A DNA stretch of 64,000 nucleotides from Obrimoposthia wandeli (lineage: Eukaryota): contig CDROCS010001100.1 of assembly GCA_977020255.1 (NCBI GenBank), forward strand, positions 124,001 through 188,000, written 5' to 3'. The notes below the pieces were generated by a model. It worked only from the letters and a program-made list of their open reading frames with translations, was not told where the DNA came from and made no database searches. Shown here piece by piece: positions 5,753-37,300 of this stretch. Position 1 is the first letter of the stretch. Every line of letters begins with the position of its first letter. The translations under genes and the position numbers were made by a program.

Positions 5753-5924
5753 ACAAGGAAACGTTTCGCACGGTCATAAAAAGAACTCAGTGAAATTTTA
5801 GTATATGATAAACATAATATATTGCAATATTAAAAATGTAGTTTTAGCTGCTATTTATTTATAATAAAAAAGTTATATGTATTAAATTTTTATAAAATAA
5901 ATTTTATGTTTTGGTTTAATTGAA

Positions 5925-10365: not shown

Positions 10366-13300
10366 GTTGGTTGTTTATTTACTGATGTGTCCAATGGTGA
10401 TGTGGCATTTACTTTCGATACTCATAAAATATTCTTTATGTAAAGATTCATCTTAAAACAGTGCTTAAAACAAGCTATTTTCAATCGAAAGTAAAGTAAA
10501 TATCATGTACAAATTAATTAATTTTAGATTTGTTCAAATAATATTGCTACAATTTGTGATTGGGTAGACCTAACGTAAGAAGTGCACCGGAGGGGGAGTT
10601 AAGATTAGGTTGATCATCTGTCGTCGTCTTAATTTCCTTTCTTAATCAACTATGAATTTCCTTTCAGTTCCAATCATTATTTCTTTCAAATCCTTGACTT
10701 TTTCAACATATTCCTTTAATATTTTCTTTCCAAATATGTTTTTCTGGAGATTGGAGTTTCTATTTCTTCTTGGGAGTATTATTTACACAAGTTTAACTTT
10801 TGTTTTACTGAACTAATGTGTGCGATAATTTAAAAAACTTTTCGTGTGCAATTTAAATTCAAATATATTTTCATTATATAATTTGATGTGGCCATGACCT
10901 CGCGCGAGTTAAACTGTCCTGCATTACCAGACTGCAATCATGGCACCAATTAAATATTTACGCTTTTGTTTATAGTACAACTACAGTTTGTGGGGATGGG
11001 GGAGGGCATGCGGTGCATTTCACAGTCTGTGGGGATGGGGGGAGGGCATGCGGTGCATTTCACAGTCTGTGGGGATGGGGGGAGGGCATGCGGTGCATTT
11101 CACAGTCTGTGGGGATGGGGGAGGGCATGCGGTGCATTTCACAGTCTGTGGGGATGGGGGAGGGCATGCGGTGCATTTCACAGTCTGTGGGGATGGGGGA
11201 GGGCATGCGGTGCATTTCACAGTCTGTGGGGATGGGGGAGGGCATGCGGTGCATTTCACAGTCTGTGGGGATGGGGGAGGGCATGCGGTGCATTTCACAG
11301 TCTGTGGGGATGGGGGTGCATTTCACAGTCTGTGGGGATGGGGGAGGGCATGCGGTGCATTTCACAGTCTGTGGGGATGGGGGGAGGGCATGCGGTGCAT
11401 TTCACAGTCTGTGGGGATGGGGGAGGGCATGCGGTGCATTTCACAGTCTGTGGGGATGCGGTGCATTTCACAGTCTGTGGGGATGGGGGAGGGCATGCGG
11501 TGCATTTCACAGTCTGTGGGGAGGGGGGGGGCATGCGGTGCATTTCACAGTCTGTGGGGATGGGGGAGGGCATGCGGTGCATTTCACAGTCTGTGAGGAT
11601 GGGGGAGAGAATGCGGTGTATTTCACAGTCTGTGAGGATGGGGGGAGAGAATGCGGTGCATTTCACAGTCTGTGGGGATGGGGGGAGGGCATGCGGTGCA
11701 TTTCACAGTCTGTGGGGAGGGGGAGTGGTGCATTTCACAGTCTGTGGGGATGGGGGAGGGCATGCGGTGCATTTCACAGTCTGTGGGGAGGGCACATTTC
11801 ACAGTCTGTGGGGATGGGGGAGGGCATGCGGTGCATTTCACAGTCTGTGGGGAGGGGGAGGGCATGCGGTGCATTTCACAGTCTGTGAGGATGGGGGGAG
11901 AGAATGCGGTGCATTTCACAGTCTGTGGGGATGGGGGAGGGCATGCGGTGCATTTCACAGTCTGTGGGGATGGGGGAGGGCATGCGGTGCATTTCACAGT
12001 CTGTGGGGAGGGGGAGGGCATGCGGTGCATTTCACAGTCTGTGGGGATGGGGGAGAGAATGCGGTGCATTTCACAGTCTGTGGGGATGGGGGAGGGCATA
12101 AGCCATTTCACAGTCTGTGGGGAGGGGAATGCGGCATTAAAAATCACAGTCTGTGGGGATGGGGGAGGTGCATTTAACACAGTCTGTCATGCGGTGCATT
12201 TCACAGTCTGTGGGGAGAGGGCACCATTTCACAGTCTGTGGGGATGGGGAGGGCATGTGGTGCATTTCACAGTCTGTGGGGATGCATGTGTCACAGTCTG
12301 CGATGGGGAGGGCATGCATGCATTTCACAGGCTGTGGGGGAGGGGGAGGGCATGCGGTGCATTTCACAGTCTGTGGGGATGGGGGAGGGCATGCGGTGCA
12401 TTTCACAGTCTGTGGGGATGGGGAGATGCTGCATTTCACAGTCTGTGGGGAGGGGGAGGGCATGCGGTGCTTTTCACAGTCTGTGGGGAGGGGGAGGGCA
12501 TGCGGTGCATTTCACAGTCTGTGGGGAGGGGAGGGCATGCGGTGCATTTCAGTCTGTGGGGATGGGGGAGGGCATGCTGCATTTCACAGTCTGTGAGGAT
12601 GGGGGTGCATGCGGTGGGGAGGCATCGTATCACAGTCTGTGATGGGGGAGGAAAACATGTGTGCATTTCACAGTCTGTGGGGATGGGGGGCATTGCGTGC
12701 ATTTCAGAGTTTGTGGGGATGGGGGGAGGGCATGCGGTGCATTTCAGCCAGCTCTAGCCAGGCATGCGGCAGCAGATTTTGACTGGTTGATACTGCATTT
12801 CACAGTCTGTGGGGATGGGGGGAGGGCATGCGGTGCATTTCACAGTCTGTGGGGATGGGGGAGGGCATGCGGTGCATTTCACAGTCTGTGGGGATGGGGG
12901 AGGGCATGCGGTGCATTTCACAGCCTGTGGGGATGGGGGAGGCATGCGGTGCTTCACCTCTATCATGGGGGAGGGCATGCGGTGCATTTCAAAGTCTGTG
13001 GGGATGGGGAGGGCATGGCATTTTAGGTCTGCATTTTTCAGAGTCTGTGCGGTGCATTTCACAGTCTGTGGATGGGGGTGCATTGTAGTCTGTGAGGATG
13101 GGGAGAGTGGGTGCATTTCACAGTCTGTGGGGATGGGGGAGGGCATGCGGTGCATTTCACAGTCTGTGGGGATGGGGAGGGCATGCGGTGCATTTCACAG
13201 TCTGTGGGGAGTCTGTGGGGATGGGGGAGGGCATGCGGTGCATTTCACAGTCTGTGGGGATGGGGGAGGGCATGCGGTGCATTTCACAGTCTGTGGGGAT

Positions 13301-16300
13301 GGGGGAGGGCATGCGGTGCATTTCACAGTCTGTGGGGATGGGGGAGGGCATGCGGTGCATTTCACAGTCTGTGGGGATGGGGGGAGAGAATGCGGTGTTT
13401 ATAATACTTTATTAAAAAACATTTAGACTTTACATTTTTGCATACTTTAGTCTTGTATAGTGGCGCTGGCACGGTTTATCCTGTAAACCCGGGACCTATA
13501 CTGTATCACCAAGACACGCGGGAAATTTCAGAAGAAATATTTTAAATTCCCTGTTTTTTCTGTAGATAATCTAAGAATATTTTATTATAAACTTTTGTAA
13601 TTTTTAATATTCAATTTTGCCAATGAAAATTTTCTTATTTCTTCATAGTTTTTAAATTAAAATTATCGATGTCAAAACTGTCAAAAATAAAAGATAATTT
13701 AAATAAAACTAATTAAAATAAAACACAATTTTAACTGTACTGAAAGAAGTTATTGAAAGTAAAAGAATCTATTTTAACAATATTCATATATCGATTTTTC
13801 ATATTTAATTCAACTATATCTGATGAGATTTATCTGATCATGTAACTAAAATTCGATTACTTTTCGTTAATCTAAAAAATAGTTTGCAAATATGTAAGGA
13901 TAATTTGTTTTGTAAATATATAAATATTAATTATTTATAAGCATAAGTAAGCACATCTTTAATAATTATAATTGAGATATGAATAACCTTTACCAGAATA
14001 AAAAAAGGTCTGTCATTTGTTATTGTTGGCGTCATTGACTACGGACGTAGAAATTCAGAAATATTCATTCAATCTAATACACACTAATCTAATATATTAC
14101 TAAGAAATAATTGCTCTATCATGTTTTTAAACTTCTGAAAACAGTAGGAAATTCCAAAAGGGAAATAAAAATTTTAAAAGTTAAATAATCACAACTAAGT
14201 TATTGTCATTTAAAAATGAACTTGTTCAACTACTTACAGTTGTTAGTAACACATAAGTTGTGATATCTTTCTAAAGTTTTCTAACGACAAAATTATTTTG
14301 CAGACAATGTAAAGGAGCTTTCAGCACGCGTACGATTAACGGATCCCGTAGAGTGGTCTGTGAAACTAGCTGCGTTATACCACAGACCTGCGTAACTACA
14401 GCAGTACCAGAACAACTTTTACAGGTATATACTTTGATAAATCATCCAACCTTTTCTTCAAATACCAAAATCAAAAACACTGCTAGAAAATTCAAATTGA
14501 ATAGTAACTAATCTTTAATGTTTAATATTAAATTAAATCGCTTACAGAAAAATATATAACAAAGCCACCAGAATTATATTTAAATTAAATAAAAGTTCTG
14601 ATATCGAGTGAACATTTAGTGAAGTTCCATTAGTTGCTGATCAAAGTTAGAATTGAATTCAAGATCCTACGTACAATCAGAAAATTTTATTCTTGATTTT
14701 TGCTTTGTCCATATCCTCACGCTCACATTTGTATACATATTCAGTTTCCTTCTTTTTCTGTGATTCAGCTCACATATTGTGTGTCCATGCGACCTCCAAA
14801 TACGATACTTTCTCCGACTAATGTGAAAAAGGTTTATGCAATTTAAAATATGTGCAATAAATTTGTAAATAATTTTTCTTTTAATATAACTTGAAAGTCT
14901 TAAAAACTGTTAAAAGATCTCTTTTAGTGTTAAAACATGATAAGATCTGCAACAAACCTATAATGGTCGATAATTGGGACCTGCTTGTAGCTAGGAAAGA
15001 TTATTTGAAAGTTTTAAAATTTAAAAACAACAACAGTAGCATATTTAATATTGTGCTAATATCTAATAAATCGCTGATTTACTGAATAGTGAAGTCTTCA
15101 GCCGATTCTTGAATTTTTCAACATTGTACAGTTTGTTATATTCATTGGAACATTATTAACTGAAGTCATCATCGTTGCTCCTAAGATGCATATACATGCT
15201 CTATGCACCAGGCTCAAGTAGATCATAGAAATAATTTAACTTTTATGGGAAAATACATTTTCTAATGATGAGTAAATCTTGAATTCAATTCTGGTAATGA
15301 TCGCCACCCAATGGAACTTCTTTAATTTGAATATAATTCTGACAGTTTTTTTGCAAGTGATTCAATTGATATTAAACAGCAAAGAGCATTGAAAATCAAA
15401 TCTTATCAGTAGTTACCTCAATAGTTAGGTGTTTTCATATTATATAAATATTTTTGATATGGTAAAAATATTTTCCCCGACGAGTATAAAACTCTTTTTT
15501 CATCTTTAATAGGAGTTAGAGACTCATTTTTTTATTCAGTTATTATTGTCTTTATTTGATCCATATACCTATTTCATTAAAACGATTTTCTTTTCCAGAA
15601 AATGTGATTTCATGGTCGATAGAATCAAAATCAACATAAAGTTGTGTGTCATCAGTATAAAGGGGAAAATGAATATTGTATTTCTTAATTATCGATACGA
15701 TTGATGAATTGTAAATCGATAAATGGATTGAACCCTGAGGATCACCGCATTTTAAGTTTTCACGACCTGAAACAGTGTCACCAACTATAACATGCTGTTT
15801 GTGCAAAAGCAAATTACTTATTTATGTAGATTTTATGCACAAGTTATGTATTGATAAAATAATTGATTTGTATTGTGTTCTGTGGTTATGAATAACATTA
15901 AGGTTAAATTACAAAGTTACATACAACATGTATAAAAGATGAAAGAGTTGTATCATAAATTATTTATATATTTTTTCAAATGACACTTCTCAATTTATAT
16001 CACCGATGTACGTGAGGTATTAGCAAAATATCCAACACTCAGAAACCAAATCTGCTTTTGTTTTAATGTACGAAAAATACGTTTCCATGACAACATAGAA
16101 AATTAAGATTTTTTTGAAATGTAATCTTAATGATTAGCAACCCACGAAAATAGCTACAATAATCGACCGTTCCCTCGCTGTATGGCACCTCATGATTGGC
16201 TGGCTGATGCTTCAATGCAGCAATGCTTCATCTCAGCGGGAGGCAACAGCTACACTGCTAGCGGCCCTGTGCCCACAGGAGCAGCCAACACAGACCTGGC

Positions 16301-19300
16301 AGTAATGGTGACTCACAAGTCCGATCGGTGCGGCGAGAGCACTCTGGCATACGCCAGTGCCTGCGATCTGGACTCCAGCACAGACCGACCGGTGTTGGGC
16401 ATCATCAACCTCTGTCCAGGCCGCATCAAACTCGGTAGTGGAATCAGCATTGCCTTCTCGGTGCTGCGCCACGAAATTGCTCACATCCTGGTGAGTCGAG
16501 CTGGCTCTGGATGATTATTTTTTAGAGAAGTTCATTATAATATTCTATAAGCATTTTTAGTGCTGATTTTTAAAAAAATAATTAAAAAAATAAATTCAGT
16601 TTGTTATTAGTTTATTGCGTTTTTATAAATTTATGTGGTATGTAGAACAATTTTATAATTTTTATGTCAGAAAAGTGATTCAAAATCGATCTGAACCAAA
16701 CGGATTATTTTTATATCAATATAACTTAGGTCTCAGGGCAGCAGAAGCCTCATAGATATAATATTTGGTAAAGGTACTGCTAATGATAGAGCCACTTAAA
16801 GGTGGTTTGAAAAGTTTGAAAAAGTATCACTGTTTGATGGTCAATGGTATTATACACTACACATTTTGAATCCAGGTGAAACAATCAGTCCAGACTCATA
16901 TTGCAACTAAATTGATATATGCCATCAATGATTAATAAAACAACCAAGTTTAGCTAATCGAAAAGGATCCATTTTGCTCGCTATAATGCCAGTATTTATC
17001 GTTATTTCTGGATTGATAAAAATTTGATAATATGGATAGTGTAAAGTCACAGATATGCAACTTCTTCAAGTTTAGAAATCAAAGATTTTTTCAAACAATT
17101 TTTTGCAGAGAAAAGCGTTAATTTTAGATTAATGCATATTTAATGTCAGTTCTAATAAATAAAAATACAAGACAAATACACACTTATCAATGTTTTGTTA
17201 GAGTCAATTTTCTTGGATTTCTCTCATTGTGCAATCGATCTTCCAATCTGATCTCTTTGCCACTAGAATCTGCGGGTAGTGTCAATTGACTCAACTTTGA
17301 TTTTTCCGATTAGTTTGTAAATAAATTATGCCGTCTAAGGAAGTCATCATATGTTTATTCAGAAACACAAATGCAAATTATTCAAAGTCATCAAAGATCG
17401 AAAGGTTACCCCAAACAAACAAGCTACACGTTTCGTACACGAATGGTTCTGTTTAGATGACAATTGCTTTTAAGTGCACAATTAACGTGGTGCGTCAATT
17501 TTTATGTTTACGGTTTATTTATATTGCAGTACCCAATAAATTTATTCTTTGTTCATATGACGTTAAGTTCTTCACGTCATTTCTAGCATAAATGTAAACG
17601 TTTCAAAAGTCTCTTTTATTGTAGATTGATGGTCATTAAACGAAAGCTGGACTGTAGTGAAGTGTCATTGTGTTCTTTCTGCAACAAGATAAATTAAAAA
17701 TTCGCCAAAAAAGATTTTGTATGGAACTTGACAAGTTTTCACTGTAATGATTAGAGCGGATTTTTTAATGATATATCATCAGAAGTCATATTTTTGTAAT
17801 TACATAAAAAGTTGATTTTTTTTTCAACAATATTTTATCATGTACAATAAAAGGATTATAATTTATAATAAATGAAATGATCATTTTTAATTAAAGGTTT
17901 ATAATTTCTTTAAATTTTATTTTTGTTAGAAGTGTAAAGTGTCGGTTCTAAAACAATAGCACACAAAGCCCCCCCCCCCCGAACAAGGCACAAGGAACAA
18001 AGCACATCTGAAATTTGATTAGTCATACAGATGTGCTTTGTTCCTTGTGCCTTGTTCGGGGGGGGGGGGGCTTTGTGTGCTATTGTTTTAGAACCGACAC
18101 TTTACGTCTCGAAATTTGTTTGGTCTTATGCGTCACCTTACGATTATGTAGGTTAATATTTTGTAACATTTGTATATAGTTTAAAAATTTCAAATTTCAA
18201 AAACTTAAAATTAAAAAATTAAAAAATTAAAAACTTAAAATTAAAAAATTAAAAAATTAAAAACTTAAAATTAAAAAATTTAAAAATTTTAAAAATAACA
18301 TTTTGAAATTAAAAAATTTTAATTTTGAAATTAAACATAATTGACCGTCCCAAATTTTTATTTGCAACTATTTAATTTACTTAGTACTGCGACCTCATTC
18401 CAGGAGTTAGACTGCCCCGCATAACCGGACAGCTATCGCAGTTTTTATCTTAAGAAACGTTATTGTTTATAGTAGGAGTTTAGTAAAAAAGCTTTGTGTG
18501 CTATTGTTTTAGAACCGACACTTTACGTCTCGAAATTTGTTTGGTCTTATGCGTCACCTTACGATTATGTAGGTTAATATTTTGTAACATTTGTATATAG
18601 TTTAAAAATTTCAAATTTCAAANNNNNNNNNNNNNNNNNNNNNNNNNNNNNNNNNNNNNNNNNNNNNNNNNNNNNNNNNNNNNNNNNNNNNNNNNNNNNN
18701 NNNNNNNNNNNNNNNNNNNNNNNNNNNNNNNNNNNNNNNNNNNNNNNNNNNNNNNNNNNNNNNNNNNNNNNNNNNNNNNNNNNNNNNNNNNNNNNNNNNN
18801 NNNNNNNNNNNNNNNNNNNNNNNNNNNNNNNNNNNNNNNNNNNNNNNNNNNNNNNNNNNNNNNNNNNNNNNNNNNNNNNAAAAATTTTAATTTTGAAATT
18901 AAACATAATTGACCGTCCCAAATTTTTATTTGCAACTATTTAATTTACTTAGTACTGCGACCTCATTCCAGGAGTTAGACTGCCCCGCATAACCGGACAG
19001 CTATCGCAGTTTTTATCTTAAGAAACGTTATTGTTTATAGTAGGAGTTTAGTAAAAAAAAGTCTATGTTTATACATAATTATATTCATTGTCACAATCCA
19101 TGCTTTCTTCTTCTTCTTCTATTTTAATGATTGTTGCAACTTTAGGTTTAAAGTCTCCATTAAACAGGTGATACATATAAAGTTCTTCAATCCTTGAGAC
19201 AAAAAGTTCTGGTGCAACAAATAAGCTAAAGTACTTTTCAGTATACTGGGCCATCAAGGTAGGGCTCAGGTTATCATAGAGAGCTTGCAATTTTTCTTTA

Positions 19301-22300
19301 GAAGTAGTCATTTGAAATAATGAGAAATTGGTTGATTGTAATGTGTTTATATTTATAGAGAATTTGTTAAAATTATCCAATGAAATTATCCAATGAAATT
19401 ATCCAATGAGTAGCTAGTAGGAAGTCAAGACATGGTTATGATACATACAATGTATTAAAAATAAACATCAATAAAAATATATACATACTATAGCATTAAA
19501 AATATATACATACTATTGCATTAAAAAGATACATACTATCACATTAAAAAATAAGAGGATATTAGTTAATACTTTCAAGAGGTTACCCCAGATTTTAGAC
19601 TATAGTGTCCATATGCGACGGATTTGTTTTTCTCAAGCCAAACCCTTTTATCGTCATAACACCTTAGAAGTGTTGTTTAAAACAATAGCACACAAACAAG
19701 AACAAAGCACATCTGAAATTTGATTAGTCATACAGATGTGCTTTGTTCCTTGTGCCTTGTTCGGGGGGGGGGGGGGGGGCTTTGTGTGCTATTGTTTTAG
19801 AACCGACACTTTACGTCTCGAAATTTGTTTGGACTTATGCGTCACTTACGATTATGTAGGTTAATATTTTGTAACATTTGTATATAGTTTAAAAANNNNN
19901 NNNNNNNNNNNNNNNNNNNNNNNNNNNNNNNNNNNNNNNNNNNNNNNNNNNNNNNNNNNNNNNNNNNNNNNNNNNNNNNNNNNNNNNNNNNNNNNNNNNN
20001 NNNNNNNNNNNNNNNNNNNNNNNNNNNNNNNNNNNNNNNNNNNNNNNNNNNNNNNNNNNNNNNNNNNNNNNNNNNNNNNNNNNNNNNNNNNNNNNNNNNN
20101 NNNNNNNNNNNNNNNNNNNNNNNNNNNNNNNNNNNNNNNNNNNNNNNNNNNNNNNNNNNNNNAACATAATTGACCGTCCCAAATTTTTATTTGCAACTAT
20201 TTAATTTACTTAGTACTGCGACCTCATTCCAGGAGTTAGACTGCCCCGCATAACCGGACAGCTATCGCAGTTTTTATCTTAAGAAACGTTATTGTTTATA
20301 GTAGGAGTTTAGTAAAAAAAAAAGTCTATGTTTATACATAATTATATTCATTGTCACAATCCATGCTTTCTTCTTCTTCTTCTATTTTAATGATTGTTGC
20401 AACTTTAGGTTTAAAGTCTCCATTAAACAGGTGATACATATAAAGTTCTTCAATCCTTGAGACAAAAAGTTCTGGTGCAACAAATAAGCTAAAGTACTTT
20501 TTCAGTATACTGGGCCATCAAGGTAGGGCTCAGGTTATCATAGAGAGCTTGTAATTTTTCTTTAGAAGTAGTCATTTGAAATAATGAGAAATTGGTTGAT
20601 TGTAATGTGTTTATATTTATAGAGAATTTGTTAAAATTATCCAATGAAATTATCCAATGAAATTATCCAATGAGTAGCTAGTAGGAAGTCAAGACATGGT
20701 TATGATACATACAATGTATTAAAAATAAACATCAATAAAAATATATACATACTATAGCATTAAAAATATATACATACTATTGCATTAAAAAGATACATAC
20801 TATCACATTAAAAAATAAGAGGATATTAGTTAATACTTTCAAGAGGTTACCCCAGATTTTAGACTATAGTGTCCATATGCGACGGATTTGTTTTTCTCAA
20901 GCCAAACCCTTTTATCGTCATAACACCTTAACGCAATTTTATCATTATACATTGTAAATAATTGATGATTGCGAGATAAAATACGTGTCTGACCGGCAGT
21001 TATAATTTCATCATCAACATAACACTTTATGTAATGCTCATGTCTGATTTCGGTTTGTTTAAGGGAGATACCCTTAGCCCTCATACTCGTTTTCAATGAG
21101 TAGCATTTAGGTTTCAGAAATACCCATTCATCATAAAGCACTGTCCCCTTGCTTTCATCTTTAAACTTTCCAATCACATTTCGATGAGAATCGTTAAATA
21201 ACTCATGTGTGATCGGGTAATTACTCGTATCTAACATCTGATCTTTAATCATTTGTTTTAAGAGGACATCTTTATCTATATGCTTACACTCTAAGAAAAC
21301 GAGTCTGTATCCATTGCAACTATGTTGATATCACAATGATATTGCTTACGATACCGGTCAAGATCACTATACTGTAGTTGGTACATACGTAGTTTAGATA
21401 AGTCCAACACAGCTTGACCAATATATGATGGGCGATCCAGACAAATTTCTTTCTTTTGCATAAATAAAAGATTGAGATTGTCGGTTATTTGGGTATGCTT
21501 CTTAAACCAGGGGCTTGAAACAAGTTTAGTAAACTGACGATCATTCTTGGTAAGACGGATATCTTTACGCTTTTTAAGATTTTCCACTGTCTTACCATAT
21601 ATTGAATTATTTTTGAGTTTATAAAACTCTTTATCAAATGTAGTAGTACCCTCTGCCCGTTTCTGGCTATTGATATCAATATATGTTTTAAATATAGGAG
21701 CTTGATGAAACTTTATTGCTCTATGCACTTGTTTAATTTCTGCACCCAGAAACAAGTAAAATTGTAGTAGTTGTGAGTGTATGATGTAATTATTTTTATC
21801 CTCATGGGTCATCAACAGCTTTGAAGCTTTTTGAGCCGGGAGGGATTTCTCTATTAGGCGCAATCGGTAAGTCATCAAGTTTATCATGAATACTGATGGG
21901 TATGCCTAAATCAATTTCCAACAAGTATCCATGTTCTTTAAGACTCAAGTCCTGCATATTACCGTGAATATCCCTCTCAGTTATAAGCTCAATTATCGCT
22001 TCAAAACCGTCATATACCCATGTAAAATCTGTATGTGGTAACGGTTGACTCAAGGCCCAACCATATAAGTTATTTATGTCAATATATAGAAGGAATGTTT
22101 CATCTGTTGTTTTAACGTAATGTTTATTGATGAAAGTCATCCCTCCCCGTATCCCTGCCTCAAACATGTTATACATTTCGGGATCATGCAATAAATCCAC
22201 ATCATACTCTAATGTTTTTAATGCGCTAGCCCAACTGAGACCAGGGATACTAAAGAAATTGAGCGCCTCTAGATTATCATCATCCCTTACTTTCTGTCTA

Positions 22301-25300
22301 AAGGCCTCAAAAACATCACATAAGAGATACACGTCAAGTTTCATATACTCAAGCATGTAGTCTTTAATAGTATTACACCCTAATACGGTCCACATCATTA
22401 GGGCTTCATTATATTGTTGATCAGTGACTCGAGAAGGAAACTCAGATTTAGCGGGTAACTGCGTCTCCATAAGCCTATCAACACCACTAATATATTCATA
22501 TGGAAATACCGCCTTACTTGTTGCAATATTAGGGTTTAGGTATTGTGTAGTATAAGGGCAACTTGGCAAGTATGAAACTAAGGATTCAAGACTTGACGTT
22601 GTAAAAAGGTATGAATCAATGAATTTCAATGTCCCCTCTTCATCTCTATACGGAGGGACATGAACTTTTCACTTGATTTAGGGATAATTGAAAAGGATTT
22701 ACCTTTCAAGTCGGCATATTTTAAAATATGATGTATGTCATAACCCATAAGGTTATGAAACACCACAGGTAAAACCGGTCTCTTTGCAAACTTGCGACTT
22801 AAATTGCATTTGTTGCATGCCGCACCCAAGTATTTACCCGTGATATGATCATGATCTCTAACCATACGATCGTTTAATTTTTTTACAAAGATAGCAATTA
22901 GTGCAATCTCTAAAGTTCAACATGTCATTATTAGTAAAAACCATAGGAACATTAATACTATTTACCCAAAATCTGCCACTTCACCATTTATCAACTCAGT
23001 TAATTTATCTACAAAGTTTTTAGCACACTGCAGACCGTAATAACTGAAATATTGTATTGAATTATTAGTGTTGTTTTTCAAAATCATCCCTATAGATATT
23101 GGTTTATGAATATGTTTGAAAGTATTATGTGGCTCGAGTATTGACTCAAAGTCGGCATATACAACAAATGGTGGCGCAATAGATTTAGACCAGTCGGAAA
23201 ATTGACACTTGATCTCTTTGGGCATTGTAAACAAGGTTGTTAAATCTGTATTAATATTACAATGTGCCCTGTGTTTGTCATATGAAATCGTGGTTCGAAA
23301 TCCAAAAAGACATTTCTCACACCAAAAGAGACGCACATTATATTTTTGAGTATTTAAAAGTCTATTCAGGTTTGTTATCCCTGTATAGTGATAATTACCG
23401 CTCTGTTCCAACAGCAACAAGTTTACTACTTTTTCGCACTGTTTAAGACTCGTTCTATAAATAACATTAACATCTGGGTTTTTAAACACTAGATGACTAC
23501 TATGAGGCTCTACCTTTGTAGGTTTATAGGAGAATACTGTTATCGCTATATTATTGAGTTTTTCAAACGCCTTGATGCCGTCTATCCTCATAGGACCAGG
23601 CTCACATATAAGTTCATTTAAATAATCATTATAGTTTTCAACTCTTTGTCTGTTTCGATTGAAATCTTTATAGTGTAGGATACTGAGAACAGCGTATTTA
23701 AAACACTGATCATCAGTATTATTTACGTTCACTATAGATAGTGTTTTAGCAAGCGCAACCGGGGTTTTTATAAATGATGATCCTGCTACGTTTGAAAGTG
23801 CAGTAAATTTAAAGGATACCAACAGAATTTTAAATACTGACCATCCTGAACTCATATCCTTATAAATTTCAATTTTATTGTTGAGCTCAACTGTTCTTGT
23901 AGTGATAAAATCTTGTTCAAAAATATTTGCTTTACAGCTTACATGCCATGTTTTATGTTGACCCTCGTTATTGACAAATTCGGTTTCAACACCAAACTGT
24001 ATTTTACAGGGACCAAACACATCTATACTGTTAGTAAGTTCAGTTAGCATAGTATCGTTAATGTATAGTTTAAGCATGTTTAATCCACTAACATCAAAAA
24101 CAAGGTTTGATTGAATTGCACCTCCTATTTGATTGTTAAAAGTTAATGTATTATCTGAATTAATTGTAACAATATTATCAAAGTCATCATCCGTAATAGT
24201 TAGGAGTGAGTCGAAAAAATCATTTTCTGTTATAAACTCGTCCTGATCTATAAGTTCATCAATATTATTATTATTTAAGATTTCATTAGGGCTTAAAGGC
24301 TCAATAATTTCTACAACTTCAGGATAAGTATCAATTTCTACAACACTATCCGGTTCCCACGAGTCTACCACATCAAACTCTTTCATTAAAATTATTAGTT
24401 TTTGCTATTTTATTGTTGTCTATTGTTGGTACTCTCATTACTTTACGTTTGTATGCTGACTTTTTAGACTTAAAATACGTCAGATGATCCTTATGATTGT
24501 TATAAAATGTTTGATAGTCAATACAATATAACACATCACAATGTGGACAAATAAAACCGCTTTTAAATTTATAATATTTAAGCATTACACTATGACATTC
24601 TATTCCATGATTAACGTTTGTGCAATACTTGTACAATGTACATAAGTTACTTCCTCCACGAAGTTTAGGGTATACATGGATAATAGCCCCCTCATGTAAA
24701 AACATCACCGATAATAGCTTCCCTTTCAAAGGGCATGCCATTACGGTTAAAATAAATTTGATCAGTCTCAAAGACTTTATATAATTTATTTGCCAGATCT
24801 GTAATTTTCAGACCTGGACTAATATTAATGGGTTTGCAAGACCCTAATAAATTTGCAAATATTGTTATGTCTGCTGGTAGTTTTCTCAATCTACGCAGCT
24901 TCTGACGAAATCTTTTACCTTTCCTACCTTCTGTTTTAAGTTTACTTAAATCAATATTTTGATTTTTAGCTTTCTTTAACTGGTTAAAATATTTTTTAAA
25001 CGGGATATTTTCAAAACCCGAGTATATTTCATTTACGTCGAAATTTTCTACTGAATTAACAGGTGACCCAACAGGTGTTCCTGGTTTAAAAAGTAAGGGG
25101 TAACCTCTTGATTTAATTAACTTATTCTGCGACCCCATTCCAGGAGTTAGACTGCCCGCGTTACCGGGCAGCTATCGCAGTCGGGAGAATAAGATTTTAT
25201 ATCCCTTATGTCCCCAAAAGTTTATGTAAATGATCGTCGTATGGAGACAAAACATGAGAATGAGAATGAGAATAAGATGAAGAAGAAGAAGAAGGAAGTT

Positions 25301-28300
25301 GAGAAGATTTCTCAAGAGATAAAAAAACTTTTGGATTCTTCTTATCATCATTATCCTCATCATATGTTGTCGACATCTTCTGTTTTCTTCTTATTTTCTT
25401 AGTAGCATCATCCGCAATCCATGGTGCAATCGATATTGGTGTTGTTGTGACACTGGGCTAAATGAAAATTAAATTAAAAAATACTAATAAAACAAATTAC
25501 TTTTTTAACCGGTGTCGCATCCAAGTCGACATCATCATCATCCATATCGACTAAAGGAGGCTTTATGGTCCATATTTTCTTTCCGTTTCGGGCAAAAATA
25601 ATTTTTGACATCTAAAGAAATAAAATTAAATAAAATTAAAATAAAATAAAAAAACTTACTTTTCGAATTGTGAATGAAATTGATAAATGACACTACACTG
25701 ATTGTTTATATATGGTTCACAATCAGTGTAGTTGCTGCCCTAGATGTACACGTCACACATCACGTGTGTACTTACAAACTAGGAATGCGTAATAAAGACT
25801 CTTTATTCCCTAGTTGCTACACACGTGATCATAAAGGTTAATTACGGTCAATCAATTATGAATATTTTCATAACCGATATTCACACCGTTAGAGTTTAAA
25901 TTTTTAAAAATAATTAACACCATAAATTTTCTCTTAATTAGTAGATTTTAAATCTCTTTTTAAATTTATCAAAACTCAAAATAAAATTTTTAAATTTCAA
26001 TGGGGCAGCTATTTATAAAACAAATACAATTTTGAATACAAATTTTATTAACAATCAACACAAATAAAAAACAGACATTTATATAGTTTGATCATACAAC
26101 CATAAGATACATAGTGGACCGCAATTAGTAGTCAGTGGGTTTTGAGAACGAATTTTGTTGTAATATACATGTTTTCCTTGAGACTCTACATGCTTGATAA
26201 GTTTTCCCGGATAGTATACTCCAAGAGGGTCATACACATGTACAGAATTCCGTCTCACGAATAACGCAATCCAGTGTTCTCCAGGAAGATTTGAGGTATG
26301 TGTATTGACAATATATCCCCCAGGCGTTAATGTTGGGATTTTTTCCAACGGGTATACACCCTTAAATCGCGGTCCGAGCAGCAAACTAGTTATTTCATTC
26401 ACCTGAACAGTACTTTGGATTAATAAAATCTTAAAATATAAATTAAAAACTCACTTCATACAATCACACGTCGGCCTTTAGTTATTTCAAACTCAGAATC
26501 AAAAATCCCGTAAATCAGTACGTTTGTTGGGACTGTTAATGACTTGTGAAACTTGATGTCAAGGCGTAAATTACCCTGTTTTGCTAATTGGTTTTGCGTG
26601 ATATCAAAGTCAGGGGCTAAAACAAACGTGAAAAATGGATATTTGGTTTTGAATTCATCCAGTGATACGCCATTGTTTATATTCTTATCCAAATTACCCA
26701 TATTTCTAATGATAGATTGGACATATGCAAAGGTGGTTTCACCTGTTTCAAAGTTTGTACTGTAAGATTCGTTAAAATCACTGTTTCTAGCAAGACTGAT
26801 AGTGTTAACATTAGAATGATCGAATGTTGAAGAGTCTGTAGCACCATTACCGATAAGTTTTTCACCTGCTTGCAACGTAATCAGCACAAATTTAGGCAAT
26901 TGTTCATCATCAAACACTTGATCCTTGTAAAAACTCGTAGAACCGATGGCTAAGGTATGATACATTAGCTTTCTGCGAGTATAGGGATATACAGCATTCC
27001 TAGATTCAAGACCAATATTATGTCCCATTAAAACATCATTCTCAACTCTAACTCTTCTGACTTTAAGTTTAGCTTCAATAAATATGATTCGCGCTAGAGT
27101 CGTTCCGTAGTTCAGACTAAACATAGATTTATTAGGTACAAGTCTTACCATGATAGACACACCAGGTAAGAGATACTTTGGTTGCTCAAAAATATCAGAT
27201 CGAAGAGTCCCACACAAGTCAATTTCTTTTGAGCGAGCAGCCCAACCTTTACGCTTATCATCATCATCATCATAACCTATACTCGACAAACAAGTGTCTT
27301 TAGTGTCTGTGCTATAGTTTAGTATGGTTTCAATCATAGCTTTTTGTGCATATTGAGGATGGGTTTCTACTACAGTATTGTTCATTGTTATATCTATGCT
27401 TTTTAAATAGGGAATGCATCAAGAAATTTGATGGGACCACATTATCTGCAACAGCTAGTTCTGTACCATCAGTTTTCGTTACTTTAATTTTCACAAACAA
27501 CAAGGTATCATTCAAATCTAAGTACTCAATATCTGAACCTTGAATTTTAAACAGAATCTCTGATGTTCTTGTTCCGGTAATATTGTTTGTTGGATATATA
27601 TCTTCAAAGCTACCATTACTTACAACTACCTGGGGCAAAGCTCGATCAAAAATACATAATTCAGATTTACCACAAGCCATTATTAAGCAAATATAGTACC
27701 TTGTTTTCTTCGTTTGTTTATACTAGATGCTTTCTTTCTACCACTACCCTCTTGCTTTTTAGTTTCGGGTTCAACCGTTTGTGCTGCTTCACTTGCTTTA
27801 CGTTTACGTCGATTTTTAATAATTTTAACAACAGTACCAAAAGCTTCCTTAGCCTCTGGTATGGCTCCGGCAACTTCCCCTAGTGCATGTTGTTTAAGCA
27901 TTGGTAACACAGATTTGTTGTTCATTATTACATCTTGAACTGTTTTAACTCCAACACGGCCTAATCTTTTCAGTATAGGGAATGCTAACCGCCCCAATGT
28001 TTTCAACCATCCCGAACCGTACTGTTTACCTACAAAATATGGTAATTCACCACCTTGTTGAGGTCCACTAAATGTCTCAATTATATTCATAACTGTAATG
28101 GACAACTATTTTTGAATACAGATTGTTTATACCTGATCTATACAACGGACATGTATGGTAAGGGATACTTTTGCATTGTTGGAAAAACTTATTGGAACAC
28201 CTGCATCGTTTCTAATATTAATTTCAATGTTTGAGATTACATTTGATGCTAAAGGGATATACATGGGTCTGTATATTGCGATATTAACCGTGTCTCCTGG

Positions 28301-31300
28301 TGCTTTATTTTTATCTAACCATATAGATTTTAATAAGGGTATCATTTGACCTCCAACGTTTACAGGTTCACACAGACTAGAATACAAGTACATGTGATCA
28401 AACTCGTAATTTAATCGAGGTAGTCCAGACCCGTTGCCCGTAAATCGTGATTTATCTAACCCTAATACATACATTAAACGTTGATCAAATCCAATATGCT
28501 CAATTCCATTCTTTAATACAAATTTTATTAGCTTATCATTATCATCAATATAAAATCTTTTAAATATGACGTCGCATTTAGATTTAATGTATGCTACTAA
28601 TGCATTTACATTATTATTATTTAAATCTTCTGTAAATACAATTTTCTTGTTGTATGAACCGGTTTTATAATGCATATATTGTAAATTATGTGCACTGCAA
28701 TCAGGTCTGATAGACGTTGATCCAAGTAAAACTCCTTTATCATCAGACTCGAAACCTTCTGAAGTTAATGTATTGAAAATGAATCCTAATTCATTTTTAG
28801 CGTCAGCATCCATCTTGATATAGAATTTTTTGTTGTTGACGGATTTTATTAGTACAACATTATCCTTTTTATCAATACCTACACCAACTGTGCTTAAGGA
28901 AATAGAAAGCTTTGCAATCTTATCTTTAGACGTGACGGTGAGTTTTGATATTTTATTAATTGTCTTTTTAATAACTTTTGGTTCTGATTTATCACCATGC
29001 AATTGCGGTTCTTTCTTTTCTACTTCTACTTGAGTATGAATTACTGATAAAGATATTTGATCAGTCTGTTGATTGGAGAATTTAATAGAATAATTAATTT
29101 CACTGCCCTTATTTAAAATAACAGGAGTGTTTGTGTACGTAAATTCAGTTAATGCCGCCTCCCATTTACCATTTAACGTAATTGGATTCTCCCAATCTAC
29201 AGTGAATAATGAAGCCATATTATTAGGTTGAGTTTTCGGACAACTATTACTCGGTAAAATCATATAGAAGTCTCTATCTGGCTTGCTTTGATCCATGTTG
29301 ATTCAGAATATCCATGCCACTTTACGAGATATTGTTTATTCTTACCACGGCCTTTAGATTTTACGACTTCTTGGATACGGAAAAGTGTAGGTTTATCAAT
29401 TACTTGTAGTTCAGGTTCATAAAATTTCCCTGTTATTACATTACAGTCATCATCAACTATAGAGTACATTACAGGATTTGCACGTTTGTCTATTTTCTCT
29501 ATCCTAAACACTTCATCACTCCAATTCTGATCAAAGTTTTTAATAAAGGGGCTACCACTAAACTTTGATATCCGAACATAATCACCAGTCTTATGTTTGG
29601 GTTTATTAACTTTATCGACTTGATTACGACTCAACCAAATTTCCATTGCATTTTTATCATTAATATCGACAGGTCTCAATCCGTCTAAACCTCTATGCTT
29701 ACTGTGATTGTATGAAGTCATTACTTTTGGTAAAACGTCAACCCATCTTTTATTGCCTTGTGCAATAAAATGTCTTTAATCGATCTCTCAATGTTCTATT
29801 AAACCTTTCAACTAGGGCAGCTTTGAATTGTGAAACTACAGAGTAATGTTCAATATTTAATTTTTTAAATAAACTACCTACATTTTTGTTGTAAAACTCT
29901 TTACCCTTATCAGTTTGCACATGTATGGGGACAGTTTTATCAGTCATTATACTTAGAGCAGCCTCTATATCCTTACCTGATTTAGATTTTACAGGTAATG
30001 CACGCGCATACCTTGTAAACACGTCAATACATGTTAAAATATACTTGTTACCATCATTGATACTTGCATATGGTATCATTTCCATCAAATCGGCCTGCCA
30101 TAAATCGTTAGGACCGCTTGTTCTGTATGCTCGAGTCGGGAACTTCCGCTTCATTGGCTTGTTTAGACTGTATGCTAGCTGATTGCTCAGCCATTTCTGA
30201 GTTTTCTTTTGAGTCGATTGACTTTTTAATGATAGTTTGCCAATGCCGCTGTACCCAGCTGGGTTTTCGGGATCGTACCATATCGTTTCCATTACAACAA
30301 GTGAATTTAAAATCGATGTTTGGTATGTTATTACCCATTTTGTTTATGAGTTTATCAATTTTGCAATCAAAGGAGATACTAAAGTAGCAATTATAGGTAT
30401 TAATGCACCGATAAAACCACCTTTTGTTTTAGAATTACTCTACGTTTACCAGTTTTACTTTTAGTATTCACTAAATCAAGTAAAGCTTTTTGATGTTTTC
30501 TAAGGTTATGTTTATGATTACCGATTTTTACAGTACCTTTTGTAATATTAAACAAGACTTCAACCAACTTATCAATAACAAAGGGTGGAAATGACTTGAG
30601 TATACGTTGTCTATATATGCTTGGAGCCTTGATTAAAGCCTGAAAGTAGGGAAGTATAGATTTTGATAACATGTTTAATGAATTAAACTATTTGCAATAT
30701 TGTTTATAGTTTAATCCATTTACCAACTAGTTTATTTACACGCTTTTTATCCGACTTCTTAACCGACTTTCCAACTGCTTTCTTAACAGGTTTCTTCTTT
30801 AATGGTTTCTTTTTTACAGGTTTTCTCTTTACTGTCTTTACCGATTTCTTTAATGATTCATCGACTACTTTACGTTGATGAAGCACTGATTTAATAAGAT
30901 TTTTAATATGAGCATTCTTCTTTAACATCAAATTGTTATCATTAGCGTGTAATTTATCACCCGGTCTCCATTTAGGTCCAACTCCACTAGGCATTGTTTC
31001 TTTCATAAATGACATGATTAACAAGTAGATAGGCTTTTCTTTTGTTTATATACAAAATCATTATTGAAAATATCGGTTCTCACGCGTAAATCGTCTGGAC
31101 ATTCCTGTGTAAAATCTAAAAACAAGTATCCATGAGGGTTAGTTGTAGCATCTTGAAATGCGTCAATCAAATATTGCTTATTACAAGGGAAAGCTTGACG
31201 GGCAACAAAGTCGATAACCGTTTGATCTCGCGGATTTTTAAATAATACTAGATAATGTACATTTAAATTCCGAGTACATTTTACTTTATCGGTTGAATCA

Positions 31301-34300
31301 TCATCATGTTTATAAAATCCGGCTTTTGCTAAATCATTTACAGATTGTTTCCCTTTAAAATTTATAATTAATGATCTTAATCTTTCACTTTCACGTCTAT
31401 ATTTCCAATGTAAAACTTTCATTCTAGAATAACCTACTTTTCGTCTAACTAAAACATCATCAACAGTTGTATAATGAAGTATATAATCAACTAGCATTTC
31501 AAATCATGTAAGAATAAAATTCAACTAAAATTTATTGTTTATATCAAAAGTAAAATATCAGTTATTATCAAAGTCACATCAAAGTGATAATCCAAATCCT
31601 TGAGACCGAGTATGACCACTTTCCCGCTTGCAAATATGTTGACGCACAGAGGATTGTGTTTTGTAAACCTTAAAGCAGGAAACAACTCAGGTTCGAACAT
31701 GCATGCAGCTCCACACTTTTGAGACAACTTGTATAGGTTCACCTTCTTACCTAAATCGACAGTAACCGTTACTGATTGAATACGATCAATCTTTATTCTA
31801 AATGGACACTTGAGCAAAGTTGTAGTAATAGGTTTCTTGCAACCCATTATCCTGCATGCTCCTAATAATAACTAACTAACTAACTAACATAAAAACATAC
31901 CTGAACGGAAGATTATAAGGGTATAATCCTTACACCTGTGCACGTACTGACATGGTTTCCCGGTTTTGAAGGGTAAGTGACTGATGTCTCCTTTAACTTT
32001 ACCTTTATAATTAATATTTGCAAGATTCATGATTGAATTGATGGAAATAACCCAATCTATATATAAAATTTTTAAGCTAAAGATTATCCAATCAGAATCG
32101 AGTATGATATATATATATAAGCTACCACTTTTGGTATAGAATTCATTATTTTGATATGAACTCTAAACAAACGAAATCTCTTAAGTTCGAGAAGCCACCA
32201 CCACCAACAAGGATTACAGACACAGATGTGGATACCGATGATGATGATGATGTAGTTTTTATATCAAAACCAAAGAAGCAAACTATGACAAGCAACAACC
32301 ATAAACAAACCAAGACTATCAAGATTGAGAAGCAAGCAACAAATGAGGATCTCTTTATTGATGATATAGTCTCTACACCCAAACATAAGAAACCGTTCAA
32401 CAATAAACCATCAGATGTAATATTTGAGTCTAATGATTTGAAGTACACCAAGCCGGTTATGTTTTATAACTGGCAAATGAATTTTTTGAAGACTCCAATC
32501 ATATATGGATTCATGTTTCCGGTGGCTCTGAATAAGTCAAAATACGATTTCAAGATACATAGATTAAATCCGTCAGATATTGATGATCTTAACAAAACTT
32601 TTGAGTCGATGCATCTCAACATCATAGTTGGGAATCATATAATAATTCGAGCTGATCCTAATCTTTTCAAGCGAGATCACGACTTTAATGTTGACAATAT
32701 GGGAACTGGACTCAAGTGGATGATTGTCATTTCAATACAGGGATACAAAATCAACTGTACAGGTCTTCATAAACCAATCTGGAAAATTACTGATGGACAA
32801 GTTCGCTTATAATTGTACTAATATATATTTATCGATGTTACTTTGCTTTCTTCAATATAGACTCCTACTATAAACAATAACGTTTCTTAAGATAAAAACT
32901 GCGATAGCTGTCCGGTTATGCGGGGCAGTCTAACTCCTGGAATGAGGTCGCAGTACTAAGTAAATTAAATAGTTGCAAATAAAAATTTGGGACGGTCAAT
33001 TATGTTTAATTTCAAAATTAAAATTTTTNNNNNNNNNNNNNNNNNNNNNNNNNNNNNNNNNNNNNNNNNNNNNNNNNNNNNNNNNNNNNNNNNNNNNNNN
33101 NNNNNNNNNNNNNNNNNNNNNNNNNNNNNNNNNNNNNNNNNNNNNNNNNNNNNNNNNNNNNNNNNNNNNNNNNNNNNNNNNNNNNNNNNNNNNNNNNNNN
33201 NNNNNNNNNNNNNNNNNNNNNNNNNNNNNNNNNNNNNNNNNNNNNNNNNNNNNNNNNNNNNNNNNNNNNNNNNNNNNNNNNNNNNNNNNNNNNNNNNNNN
33301 NTTTGAAATTTGAAATTTTTAAACTATATACAAATGTTACAAAATATTAACCTACATAATCGTAAGGTGACGCATAAGACCAAACAAATTTCGAGACGTA
33401 AAGTGTCGGTTCTAAAACAATAGCACACAAAGCCCCGAACAAGGCACAAGGAACAAAGCACATCTGTATGACTAATCAAATTTCAGATGTGCTTTGTTCC
33501 TTGTGCCTTGTTCGGGGGGGGGGGGGGGGCTTTGTGTGCTATTGTTTTAGAACCGACACTTTACACTTCTTTTGTTGTTCAAATAATTTTAAAATTTTTA
33601 AATGGCAAAAGAAAGCATTAATTCATTGATTTTATATATATTTAGGTCAAAGTCATATTTTTCTGAACTTTTGGGTGATACAAGACACCCTAGTAATAAC
33701 TTGAAATTTGAAATATGTTAGAGATAACTTGAATGTTTATGCTTGTCGAAAACAACAGCTATTTGATGAAACTTGATTCATTCTGTTCAGCTACTTTGCT
33801 GGAAGTTATAATTATTTTGCATACCTTCATTTTAAAGATTAACATATTTCTTCTTATTTCATTTCAATCGATGCTTGATATTGCCATATATCCAGCATTT
33901 GATATCAATACATCTTTCGTGACGCTAATATTATGTATATCCATCTGGCCCTTCCTAATTTTGATACAGGAAATCGACACCTTCAGGGATTTTTTGTTGT
34001 TGCTATGACTGCCGCCTTCTTTTTTGTCTTTTGTCCCTTTGTGGGACAATTATGACTAATAACTGTTCAGCTGCAGTTTGCACAGATGAACAAGACGCAG
34101 TCAAAATGAAGAACAAATCGGGAAGTCCCAGAATTTAGGATTCAGAAAACCCACCAAAATCTTTTAAAATGTTCGCATTGGTTTTTAGAAACATGTATGC
34201 TGGCGGCTCGCAGTAGGTGGATGTGTCCGGTCTAATCCACACCCCCCTGTCCTTTAAAACCGTGCATGTGTGTGGAGTGATATTTCACTCCACACACCTA

Positions 34301-37300
34301 CACGAAATTTCACTCCACACACATGCACGGTTTTAGAGGACAAGGGGGGGGGTTGATTTGACCGGACACATCCACTTACTGCTCGCACTCAAAATTTCGC
34401 TTCCGTCAAGCATGATCTCAACTTAAGTGATCGGCAGACATCTAAAGCTTGTTCCAGATATAAGATTGAAAATGGCCCCAAGAAATGTTATGACAGAAGA
34501 ATCATCAGCGAGATCGCTATTTCACAGTCGCGCCTGCCAACTGCGTCAATACGGAAAATCCGCAAATTGTCCAACGTCAATTACAAAGCACAGTTTTTGT
34601 CTCAAAGTTGATCAACTGATTGAAGAAGACTCTCATTTGGGATTCGTATCGGCATCGACGGGGTGAATGATGTATGGAGATCAACACGTATACTTTGGAA
34701 ACAGACAATATAACTGGTGAGATTGAGATATCTAAAGGAGGGAAAATTTATTCTCGAAATTCAGAGAGTATGGAATTATACCTATTCATATTTTGGCTAC
34801 CGTACCCGATACACAGGTAGAATTATAAAAATACAAAGCTAGGGTTGCCCTTACTCACAGAACTCTTTGTCAGTGCTGCTGATCTGAAGTTGTGCAATAT
34901 ATTGCTCGGTTTGATGGCACACGAAAGCAAGCATCCTGCAGGGAGTATCGCTCTGACAAACATTATCTCAATCAAAATGGCGACAAAAGCACAATGGATT
35001 GCTCGGATGAAACACCAAATGTTCCTGCAACGTTCTTCATCTTCTTTTACATTAGCGATTGAGTGAATGTCACCACCCAAATTGAATCCTCCCACATCGT
35101 CATGTTCATTGGGCTCCAAAATGGACTGATGTAGGTTCTTGACTGGAAGAGAGCAACTACGTAGAGGTTGTTTCGCAGGAAATAGTGCTAGACGACTTTT
35201 GAAAGGAGAAGATCTACGGAGTGCTTTAATGGAGGCGTTGAATCTTGCTACGGAATACATTTTCATCCTTATTCTAAGACGAGCGTCGAAATTGCCAAGG
35301 TAGCATACATGGAGTTAGGAGTTGTGGAAGCGCTTCACAGTTGTTCGTGGGGATCCAACCTATGGAACTGGAGCTGTCAGTGCAGTGTGGTCAAATATCA
35401 GTCGCCATATTCTCCAATCGAGCAAACTGAGTGCTAGATAACGTCCCTCATTTCAGGGTATGCTATTTATAATATTGCATCTATAAGTATACTTTATGTT
35501 TTCTATAGATGACGTTCTATCGGATTTAATACATTTCTCAGTCGAAATTGCTTTGATTTTGAAATTTTCACCGGTTTCAGTTTTAAGGACCGCCATTTTG
35601 AAAGAAATTTTTTTAACGTATTTTGAAAGCCTTAACCATTAGGAGTTGAAAAAGGGTCTCGGCAATGGTATATTTTTTCTATCTAAAACTTGGTTCCGAC
35701 TCACCGTGTTTAAAATTTCAAAACTTTCCATCATTAAGCATAAATTAGCCTTTATATCCATTTTCAAAATTATAACATCTAGTGTATCATACCATACTTC
35801 CAATTAGAAGTAGTATATAATTTATGTTTTTAAAAATTTTATTCAGGGATTCAGCTCCAATTTGTATGCCTTTTATCGCTTCCCCAACGGTACTGCAAGG
35901 ACACCAAGAGATGCAAGTGGTCTTCCTACTGTCATAAAGACAATCGGTCAATCTCGGTAAGTATTTCTTAGTCATATTAGATGTTGACTCTGAACTGGAT
36001 TTTTTTTAAATGAAAGATAGCTTTATTTATATTGAAAACGTGTTAATATTTTTCTAAAATTGCGACAATCTTAACATATTTTGTATTCTCTTCTAGAGTA
36101 GACATTTGTAATACAGTGCTCATAAATCTCCCATATAAGTTGATACACTGGTTAGAAATTAATTCTGAACAAAGTGTGAATTTCTTCAATGTGGAGAGCC
36201 TATCTACTCTAGTGGTGGGCTATTGATAGAAACTCTTGCTAAGCAAACCAATCTCCGAGGCAATGATAAAGAAATTAGAGTATTACAAAGTTCAAAAGAT
36301 CATATAATATGTATAAAATAAGGTACTATAGCGAGTAACATGCTCTAGCAGGATGCTATAAAAGGCATCACTGGAAAGTAGAGGCACGATATGGTAGTTC
36401 AAGAAGTATATGCCCTACTTAAACTTGCCCTAAAGGACGGAGATACTATTGCCATGGAGGAAACTACTACGGTCATGGATGACAGTGACAATATTCAGCG
36501 AGCAAGACCAGATATTTCGGTAAAAAGTGGAAATTGAAGTTCCCTTCGACAGTAATATGAGTCAAAATAATAGTTGCAGCAAAGCAATGGACAAATATCA
36601 AAATCTAGTTGAGACTACGCGGAAAGATAATAGTGACAAAATCGTAGAATTCTATGTCATTAGAGTAGGGACCCTCGAGTTCTGGAAAACCGACAACAAC
36701 CAACTTTTCCAGGCCTACAAATATTCAGCTGTAGAAAGAAAAAAGATTAAAATACGAATCGCAAGTAAAGTCATAGAACATACTTGTGCCCAGTGGAATT
36801 TTTTTAGACTTCGTGGAGTTTCAGAAACTGTCGATACAATACCTGATCGAGTAGATGCTCTGACTGCCGACAAGTTGGAGAGGATTGAAAAGTGGATGTA
36901 TGTATTATGAAAATAAATTACCAAATAAAATTTCTGACCTATACCTTTTGAAGAAATTGAAATTCCAGAAAATATAATATTTACTTTTTCCATACCCTGG
37001 AATTAATCAGAAAATGCAGTCACAACCCGGGAAACCACCAAACAGTGTCGCAAAACAATCTCCCTGGAGATTCATCGGTCCTACATGAAGTAAAAGACAC
37101 CTTACGGTTTATTGCTATAGGGAATTTAATACTCTGCATGTGTTTGCTAGGATTATAGTTTTCTTTTCTTTTTATATATATATTTGAATGACAATTAAAT
37201 AAAGAAAGTTTTGGATTAAGTGTATTATTTTATTATAAGTTGTTAATTTTCAATTAGTATACAAAGAAAGGTCCATATTGACCGCTAATCTTTATATGAA

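Follow-up and report, generated by a model that had tools for sequence, protein, structure and literature searches.

A sequence-constrained motif in the terminal repeats and polymerase gene of a Polinton, and its tentative reading as a structured RNA

The host Polinton and its motif copies

The window, that is, the whole stretch of 64,000 nucleotides of Obrimoposthia wandeli DNA that was analyzed, contains an element of the Polinton/Maverick group. The element encodes Pfam matches to pPolB, an rve-integrase, an adenovirus-type protease, a DJR capsid and a TBP-like protein, those to the capsid and protease being weak (E about 0.01), and it is bounded by terminal inverted repeats (TIRs) and a 6-bp target-site duplication. 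The TBP-like protein, of a single-repeat type, is encoded at 31539-31847. Hairpins with ~80-bp arms terminate the TIRs; a near-perfect long hairpin lies 6 nt inside each terminus (17934-18105 and 33398-33564), and because its loop showed one orientation in 23/23 copies, we concluded that the terminal hairpin does not flip-flop. The hairpin may serve to restore a duplex origin on a displaced strand; terminal hairpins were also present in other Polinton families. Local duplication at the left end (17928-20800) gives additional TIR pieces and hairpins as well as a second 80-aa ORF region. In the flanking host DNA there are a G-rich satellite of 39-nt units and a tandem array that is AT-rich (10957-13450 and 5920-7160). 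The family of this element, here called family A, is young and high-copy, as all 150 scored integrase matches in the genome were 97-100% identical. An older family-A subfamily, whose PLUS and 80-aa proteins are mostly about 60-85% identical, occurs in the same genome together with several further Polinton families, whose capsids are 47-55% identical.

The initial annotation described a three-stem motif of about 57 nt at both TIRs and at one internal site. Both the sequence and these sites were real; however, the window contains five copies rather than three, namely one internal, one in the right TIR and three at the left end, the last because of the local duplications.

17928-33570, no strand: host Polinton (family A), ~15.6 kb, with a 6-bp target-site duplication and long terminal hairpins
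18386-18442, minus strand: extra TIR-type motif copy from a second local duplication, with its own box at -29
18954-19010, minus strand: left-TIR motif copy, 58 nt past the 80-aa ORF
20215-20271, minus strand: extra TIR-type motif copy from the left-end local duplication, with its own box at -29
25126-25181, minus strand: internal motif copy with an in-frame AUG at 25136-25138, inside the Pol-region frame in sister copies
32898-32954, plus strand: right-TIR motif copy, whose loop-2 AUG opens a 13-codon micro-ORF with its stop just past the motif

A 20-nt core of the motif, with up to one mismatch allowed, had 3,883 matches in the genome versus none for the reversed control. A Polinton usually carries three copies, one inverted and two direct, with spacings of about 9.2 and 4.9 kb. 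The flanks were either TIR-type or internal-type in 70/70 sampled core matches, and no hybrid copy with mixed flanks was found among these 70. The two types differ at 4-5 of the 57 positions and are thus more than 90% identical; their homology starts exactly at the first base of stem P1 and extends ~18 nt past the motif over an A(A/T)TAAA hexamer. Neither this additional 3′ homology nor a promoter box at -29 had been described initially. The distances reported for two of the genes were borne out, with the motif lying 85 nt after the plus-strand gene (PLUS) and about 58 nt after the 80-aa gene.

Conservation, predicted fold and distribution of the motif

We addressed the conservation of the motif by comparing family-A copies (young) with those of the older A subfamily (old), differences being scored on the commonest letter of each column. 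The samples were anchored on exact motif words and the old samples included some near-identical duplicates, so that the p values lean optimistic: variants common to at least three young copies occurred in 0/70 non-anchor motif columns (35 per copy type; 33 internal and 37 TIR copies) versus 19/200 flank columns (p 0.003); young and old differed in 3/75 columns of the TIR motif and tail versus 14/105 of the near flanks (p 0.028), and in 0/57 columns of the internal motif versus 11/45 upstream and 24/273 downstream (p 0.009). At internal third positions the corresponding figures were 0/18 and 13/91 (p 0.08), which is weak taken alone. The motif is a real, sequence-constrained and lineage-specific element. 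The young/old differences within the 13-codon micro-ORF alter amino acids and its synonymous sites are fixed; thus, the peptide is unlikely to be the selected product.

On the gene-sense strand, three stems were predicted with z-scores of -2.4 (TIR) and -3.7 (internal), which together with the low divergence relative to the flanks agrees with the earlier view of a constrained, probably folded element. The opposite strand scored nearly as well (-1.6 and -3.2), so that the strand preference is modest. As to the earlier argument that G-U wobbles and strandedness point to the RNA level, the gene-sense strand does fold somewhat better, but G.U/G.T wobble fits single-stranded DNA too. In one whole natural copy the motif was the most stable non-terminal 57-nt window, and several coding windows had stronger z-scores. 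Changes in P2 and P3 were mostly between C-G and U.G or between U-A and U.G, and P2 was intact in nearly all young copies; the second-outermost P1 pair was U.C in 17/28 in-register old TIR copies, the 22/50 copies out of register having been left out. The covariation by which RNA structure was to have been recognized did not appear in a test of low power, confined to one lineage in one genome: a two-sided compensatory change was seen at 0/18 pairs in eight young copies and at none in the pair tables of four groups. A 4-bp pseudoknot between loop 2 and the tail was considered and rejected, since it could form in 29/29 young internal, 34/35 young TIR and 31/38 old TIR copies but in only 2/9 old internal copies; its chance of arising in the young copies was 2%, or 12% given a tail change that avoids an in-frame stop. 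Taken as a structural model, folding of the motif at the RNA level is plausible.

The motif was found in the A lineage only, with families B, C, E and others lacking it. When 470 kb of sequence, drawn from 30 family-D loci and the neighbourhoods of 19 other elements, was scanned with a covariance model built from the eight young copies, nothing scored below E 0.7. Family D is highly abundant, its central word, a 15-mer, having about 11,000 matches, and its terminal sequences form a short element with inverted ends, ~170 bp in length, at 34213-34384, which lies ~640 bp beyond the right terminus of the Polinton. Near one terminus it carries a GC-rich word (L258-L287; L077:5860-5950), with 286 exact 13-mer matches versus 2 for the control, whose first eight letters are the same as those of the motif, homology being unproven. 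As a homologue, this word was significant neither by covariance model nor by local alignment (P 0.056, 0.062 and 0.20); its consensus fold differs, no box stands at -29, and it shows no covariation, one apparent compensatory pair being at chance level (counts 3046/226/106/13, expected about 8). Outside this genome, none of seven pattern matches (six metagenomic and one from IMG/VR) folded like the motif, and the three with ORFs listed were chance matches in coding DNA. Among 120 further IMG/VR matches, the 80 scored with the model included none below E 0.13; capsid queries of IMG/VR gave no locus, and three integrase loci lacked the motif.

The TATAAAC box and the polymerase reading frame

The features that surround the TIR and internal copies are as follows.

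19033-19039, minus strand: TATAAAC box, 29 nt ahead of the left-TIR motif; a second box (19067-19073) overlaps the stop of the 80-aa ORF
25112-25117, minus strand: ATTAAA hexamer of the internal copy, within the 3′ tail that it shares with the TIR copies; AATAAA in 9/10 old copies
25182-25611, minus strand: predicted Pol exon 2 (25611-25501) and the beginning of exon 3 (from 25457), on GT-AG sequence only; the "120-aa gene" of the initial annotation
25204-25210, minus strand: -29 position of the internal copy, degenerate in the window
25704-25710, minus strand: TATAAAC box in a DNA-hairpin loop, ahead of the predicted spliced 5′ part of Pol
32869-32875, plus strand: TATAAAC box, 29 nt ahead of the right-TIR motif
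32964-32983, plus strand: ATTAAA and AATAAA hexamers, at predicted transcript positions +67 and +81

In 13 element neighbourhoods from several Polinton families, 51 of 208 TATAAAC occurrences were followed by an ORF start 25-55 nt downstream (observed range 29-51), compared with 0.8-3.1% for five control words. Within the host Polinton the coding strand carries the word 16 times and the opposite strand twice; in the window, TATAAAC(A) boxes precede gene starts at 19351, 25710, 27722, 28131, 30708, 31050 and 31543 (-), and every Polinton family sampled has such boxes 29-51 nt ahead of gene starts (loci L068-L087 and L238-L257). Several of the boxes overlap the stop codon of the preceding gene, and TATAAA doubles as a minor poly(A) hexamer. 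Judged from these positions, TATAAAC behaves as the TATA box or gene-start signal of these Polintons. As the shortest box-to-ATG distance was 29 nt, the start site should lie no more than ~28 nt from the first letter of the box.

Relative to the first base of the motif, TATAAAC was located at -29/-28 in 36/36 young TIR copies and at -28 in at least 42/50 old ones, a link that was spotted post hoc; the spacer between box and motif differs between the young and old subfamilies although the offset is kept. A transcript from this box would thus be predicted to begin 0-5 nt before P1. Past the TIR box there is no long ORF, only the micro-ORF and, past it, the two hexamers (+67 and +81); a hexamer as close as 67 nt to the cap is often poorly used. 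The depth of four sequencing runs was flat and DNA-like, and so has no bearing on expression.

The situation at the internal copy is different. Exactly at -29, a TATA-like word was present in 23/32 young copies, and the old copies had TATAAAC (3/10) or TATTAA (5/10). This box is being lost: in 5/10 old copies it is abolished by a synonymous change, its first letter is C in 9/32 young copies, and Asp-Ile codons make TATA-like words locally common here. By eye, the internal 22-nt spacer looks unrelated to the TIR spacer. The frame of the AUG buried in the motif was open for at least 57 codons upstream and through the motif in 29/32 sister internal copies (range 57-139); this count leaves out one extra row, an old TIR copy, and one internal copy failed to match the anchor. 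Downstream, the frame remained open over all 466 tested codons in 3/10 copies followed. In one natural copy (L046) a single frame joins the predicted third exon to the ORF at 22962-24386, taking in first the motif, then the Ub-like domain and then a Zn-finger-like stretch, and by analogy with Polinton gene order it follows that such a frame would continue into the pPolB catalytic domain. The window copy has one frameshift upstream of the motif and one inside it; thus, the "120-aa gene", with a stop that falls 24 nt short of the motif, is an artefact of this copy.

These results bear on several earlier claims. The motif cannot be described as always lying just 3′ of a gene, as the internal copy is inside the Pol frame in 29/32 sister copies, and the reported 24-nt distance was created by a frameshift. 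The motif does contain an in-frame AUG, with the frame open upstream of it, and a translational switch survives only as an internal-start model. Because the internal copy is coding, constitutive self-cleavage or termination is unlikely. The region at 24373-25138 (minus strand) encodes a family-A Ub-like domain ending in LRGG, with a low-complexity, spliced N-terminal region ahead of the Pol-region ORFs. In tblastn, the Ub-like and N-terminal region had no counterpart in the other families sampled, and a weak search found no protein relative of the motif-coded region. The Pol promoter region (25690-25830) contains two DNA hairpins, the loop of one of which holds the TATA box, and words that we take to be like an E-box and an RFX half-site.

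A candidate structured RNA and the alternative readings

On the basis of positions and conservation, we tentatively favor, while giving substantial weight to its failing, the reading that the motif is the folded 5′ end of a short predicted transcript from both TIRs and was reused within the Pol gene. That it is a 5′ rather than a 3′ element seems probable from the sequence, and the placement of the TIR copies at the predicted start of the element's own promoter box was counted against the initial 3′-element reading. In such a mechanism, transcription by RNA polymerase II would be initiated 0-5 nt ahead of the first stem, and the emerging RNA would adopt a three-way junction in which its 5′ end pairs with nt 50-57 to close the structure. 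With transcript ends at the nearby hexamers, each Polinton end would give a structured RNA of ~90-120 nt, in which the invariant junction and loop 3 could be the site read by a protein, and the same fold in Pol transcripts would bury the in-frame AUG. The small RNA might then titrate a shared binding protein, so that polymerase synthesis is tuned by a logic like that of TAR or VA RNAs; this last step is a conjecture and the weakest. The full version, with a small structured RNA gene in each TIR under its own TATAAAC box that competes for one protein with the fold over the internal AUG of the Pol mRNA, TAR/VA-like but of a new fold, is a doubtful possibility.

An unlikely alternative is that the motif acts as DNA, as a cluster of protein-binding sites (a downstream promoter element or enhancer) beside TATAAAC, with the fold a by-product of GC-rich, partly palindromic sites. 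Conservation at the sequence level without compensation is what such sites would give, the GC-rich TIR islands of other families resemble transcription-factor sites (presumably an RFX-like palindrome, an E-box and nuclear-receptor half-sites), and loop 3 read as DNA is like what we assume to be a TEAD site. Family D, with the same first eight letters, a similar 3′ word and a different fold, could be seen in the same light; however, that likeness is not significant (P about 0.06), and against binding sites stand the edge of the TIR-internal homology, which falls exactly at the first base of P1, and the intact P2 of nearly all young copies.

It is improbable, on balance, that the motif is a 3′-UTR structure which, with the adjacent poly(A) hexamer, ends or stabilizes the outward PLUS and Pol/80-aa mRNAs, the internal copy then serving regulated early polyadenylation. 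The A(A/T)TAAA directly after the motif is the first one past both the PLUS and 80-aa stops, and to this extent the 3′-end or terminator function proposed initially could hold for the TIR copies, but is unlikely for the internal copy, which is coding. A canonical internal hexamer was kept through an Asn/Ile change (ATTAAA in 32/33 young copies, AATAAA in 9/10 old), the TIR-internal homology stops just past the hexamer, and giant viruses have hairpin-defined 3′ ends (PMC4402537). Such hexamers are, however, common (12 in the 4.3-kb Pol region and 29 in the structural genes), the ends of the structural genes lack the motif, and the fixed box at -29 is left unexplained.

Likewise improbable is a relic or micro-gene, in which the TIR unit would be a duplicated ancestral 5′ end of Pol (box, short leader, AUG 49 nt past the box and first codons) now reduced to the 13-codon micro-ORF, Pol having gained a new upstream promoter and exons and the fold being incidental. 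The AUG in the TIR loop is indeed 49 nt from the box, within the family range of 29-51, and in the Pol frame; the 4-5 TIR-internal differences in 57 positions are about what drift since shortly before the young/old split would give; and the N-terminal extension is specific to family A. Against this, the 22-nt spacer looks unrelated between the two contexts while the motif is more than 90% identical, the first 20 nt, which are non-coding, are fixed, as is every synonymous site, the young/old changes in the micro-ORF alter amino acids, and the TIR motif is less diverged than its flanks. A new class of self-cleaving ribozyme that cuts the outward and internal transcripts is very improbable, for although a compact GC-rich three-way junction with invariant junction letters is repeated in a mobile element, one copy lies within the polymerase frame, no Rfam model matches (E up to 10), the hammerhead core is missing on either strand, P1 tolerates a mismatch, and the candidate pseudoknot lacks conservation.

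The reading as a folded 5′ end invites comparison with known viral RNAs. In the HIV-1 R region, a TATA box is followed by the TAR fold at nt 1-59 and AATAAA at nt 74-79 (PMC5903597). The Polinton arrangement is similar, with the box at -29, the fold at 1-57 and hexamers at 67 and 81, and it likewise stands at both ends of the transcription unit; the box position of -29/-28 would fit a TAR-like start, in which the fold begins at the transcription start about 30 nt past a TATA box, if the start site lies where the shortest box-to-ATG distance (29 nt) would place it. TAR, however, is one bulged hairpin bound by Tat, whereas the Polinton is a DNA virus that lacks reverse transcriptase, its motif is predicted to form a three-way junction, and a Tat-like partner is not known. 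Among the relatives of Polintons are the adenoviruses. Their VA RNAs, like the EBERs, are small structured RNAs of DNA viruses that act as protein decoys (PMC4378190). A small structured RNA gene in a DNA virus would be VA-like, the decoy role of the motif being conjectural; unlike VA RNAs, which are Pol III products of ~160 nt, the motif has an mRNA-type TATAAAC box and a poly(A) hexamer. It also does not resemble a Pol III gene, since an A-box-like word at +8 is accompanied by no B box on either strand and the first T4 occurs at +90 (internal) or +127 (TIR). In Mimivirus, which belongs to a related realm of DNA viruses, the "hairpin rule" places folded RNA near mRNA 3′ ends (PMC4402537), and the motif, too, has a predicted fold near such ends. 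The Mimivirus hairpins, however, vary in sequence and mark the end of most transcripts, whereas the motif is sequence-fixed, follows two genes only and also occurs inside an ORF.

In size, multi-stem junction and mobile-element setting, the motif is like the small ribozymes (hammerhead, HDV-like, twister, twister-sister, pistol and hatchet), but it has no Rfam match, hammerhead core or conserved pseudoknot. None of the Rfam models for ribozymes, xrRNA, IRES, TAR, VA and tRNA-like RNAs overlapped a motif copy at E up to 10, in keeping with the earlier impression by eye that no known ribozyme class is matched. The hammerhead core consists of CUGANGA and GAAA around a three-way junction; in all five window copies, CUGANGA was absent from both strands and GAAA from the sense strand. 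The pseudoknotted classes (xrRNA, IGR-IRES domain 3 and HDV/twister-like) were rejected because the loop-2 pairing was present in only 2/9 old internal copies, and ARAGORN found 0 genes; no tRNA or SINE origin was found. We concluded that the motif belongs to none of the TAR, VA and Mimivirus-hairpin classes, as it is without a model match, a B box or a known partner.

If the full version of the favored reading is true, a Polinton would have a TAR/VA-like regulatory RNA of a new fold. Transcription start and control in Polintons are largely undescribed in the searchable literature, and a search of titles and abstract openings, with subscription papers outside its coverage, returned no account of Polinton RNA elements or promoters. 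The predicted start site, the predicted RNA length and more than 1,000 young genomic copies make a direct test easy; moreover, TATAAAC at gene starts in at least five Polinton families encoding a TBP-like protein would offer a promoter handle whatever the motif is. A GC-rich three-stem fold, with variable loops and without an Rfam match, also opens each of the two inverted copies of another repeat (L082:1-222 and L083:7187-7402), where it is possibly the start of an LTR.
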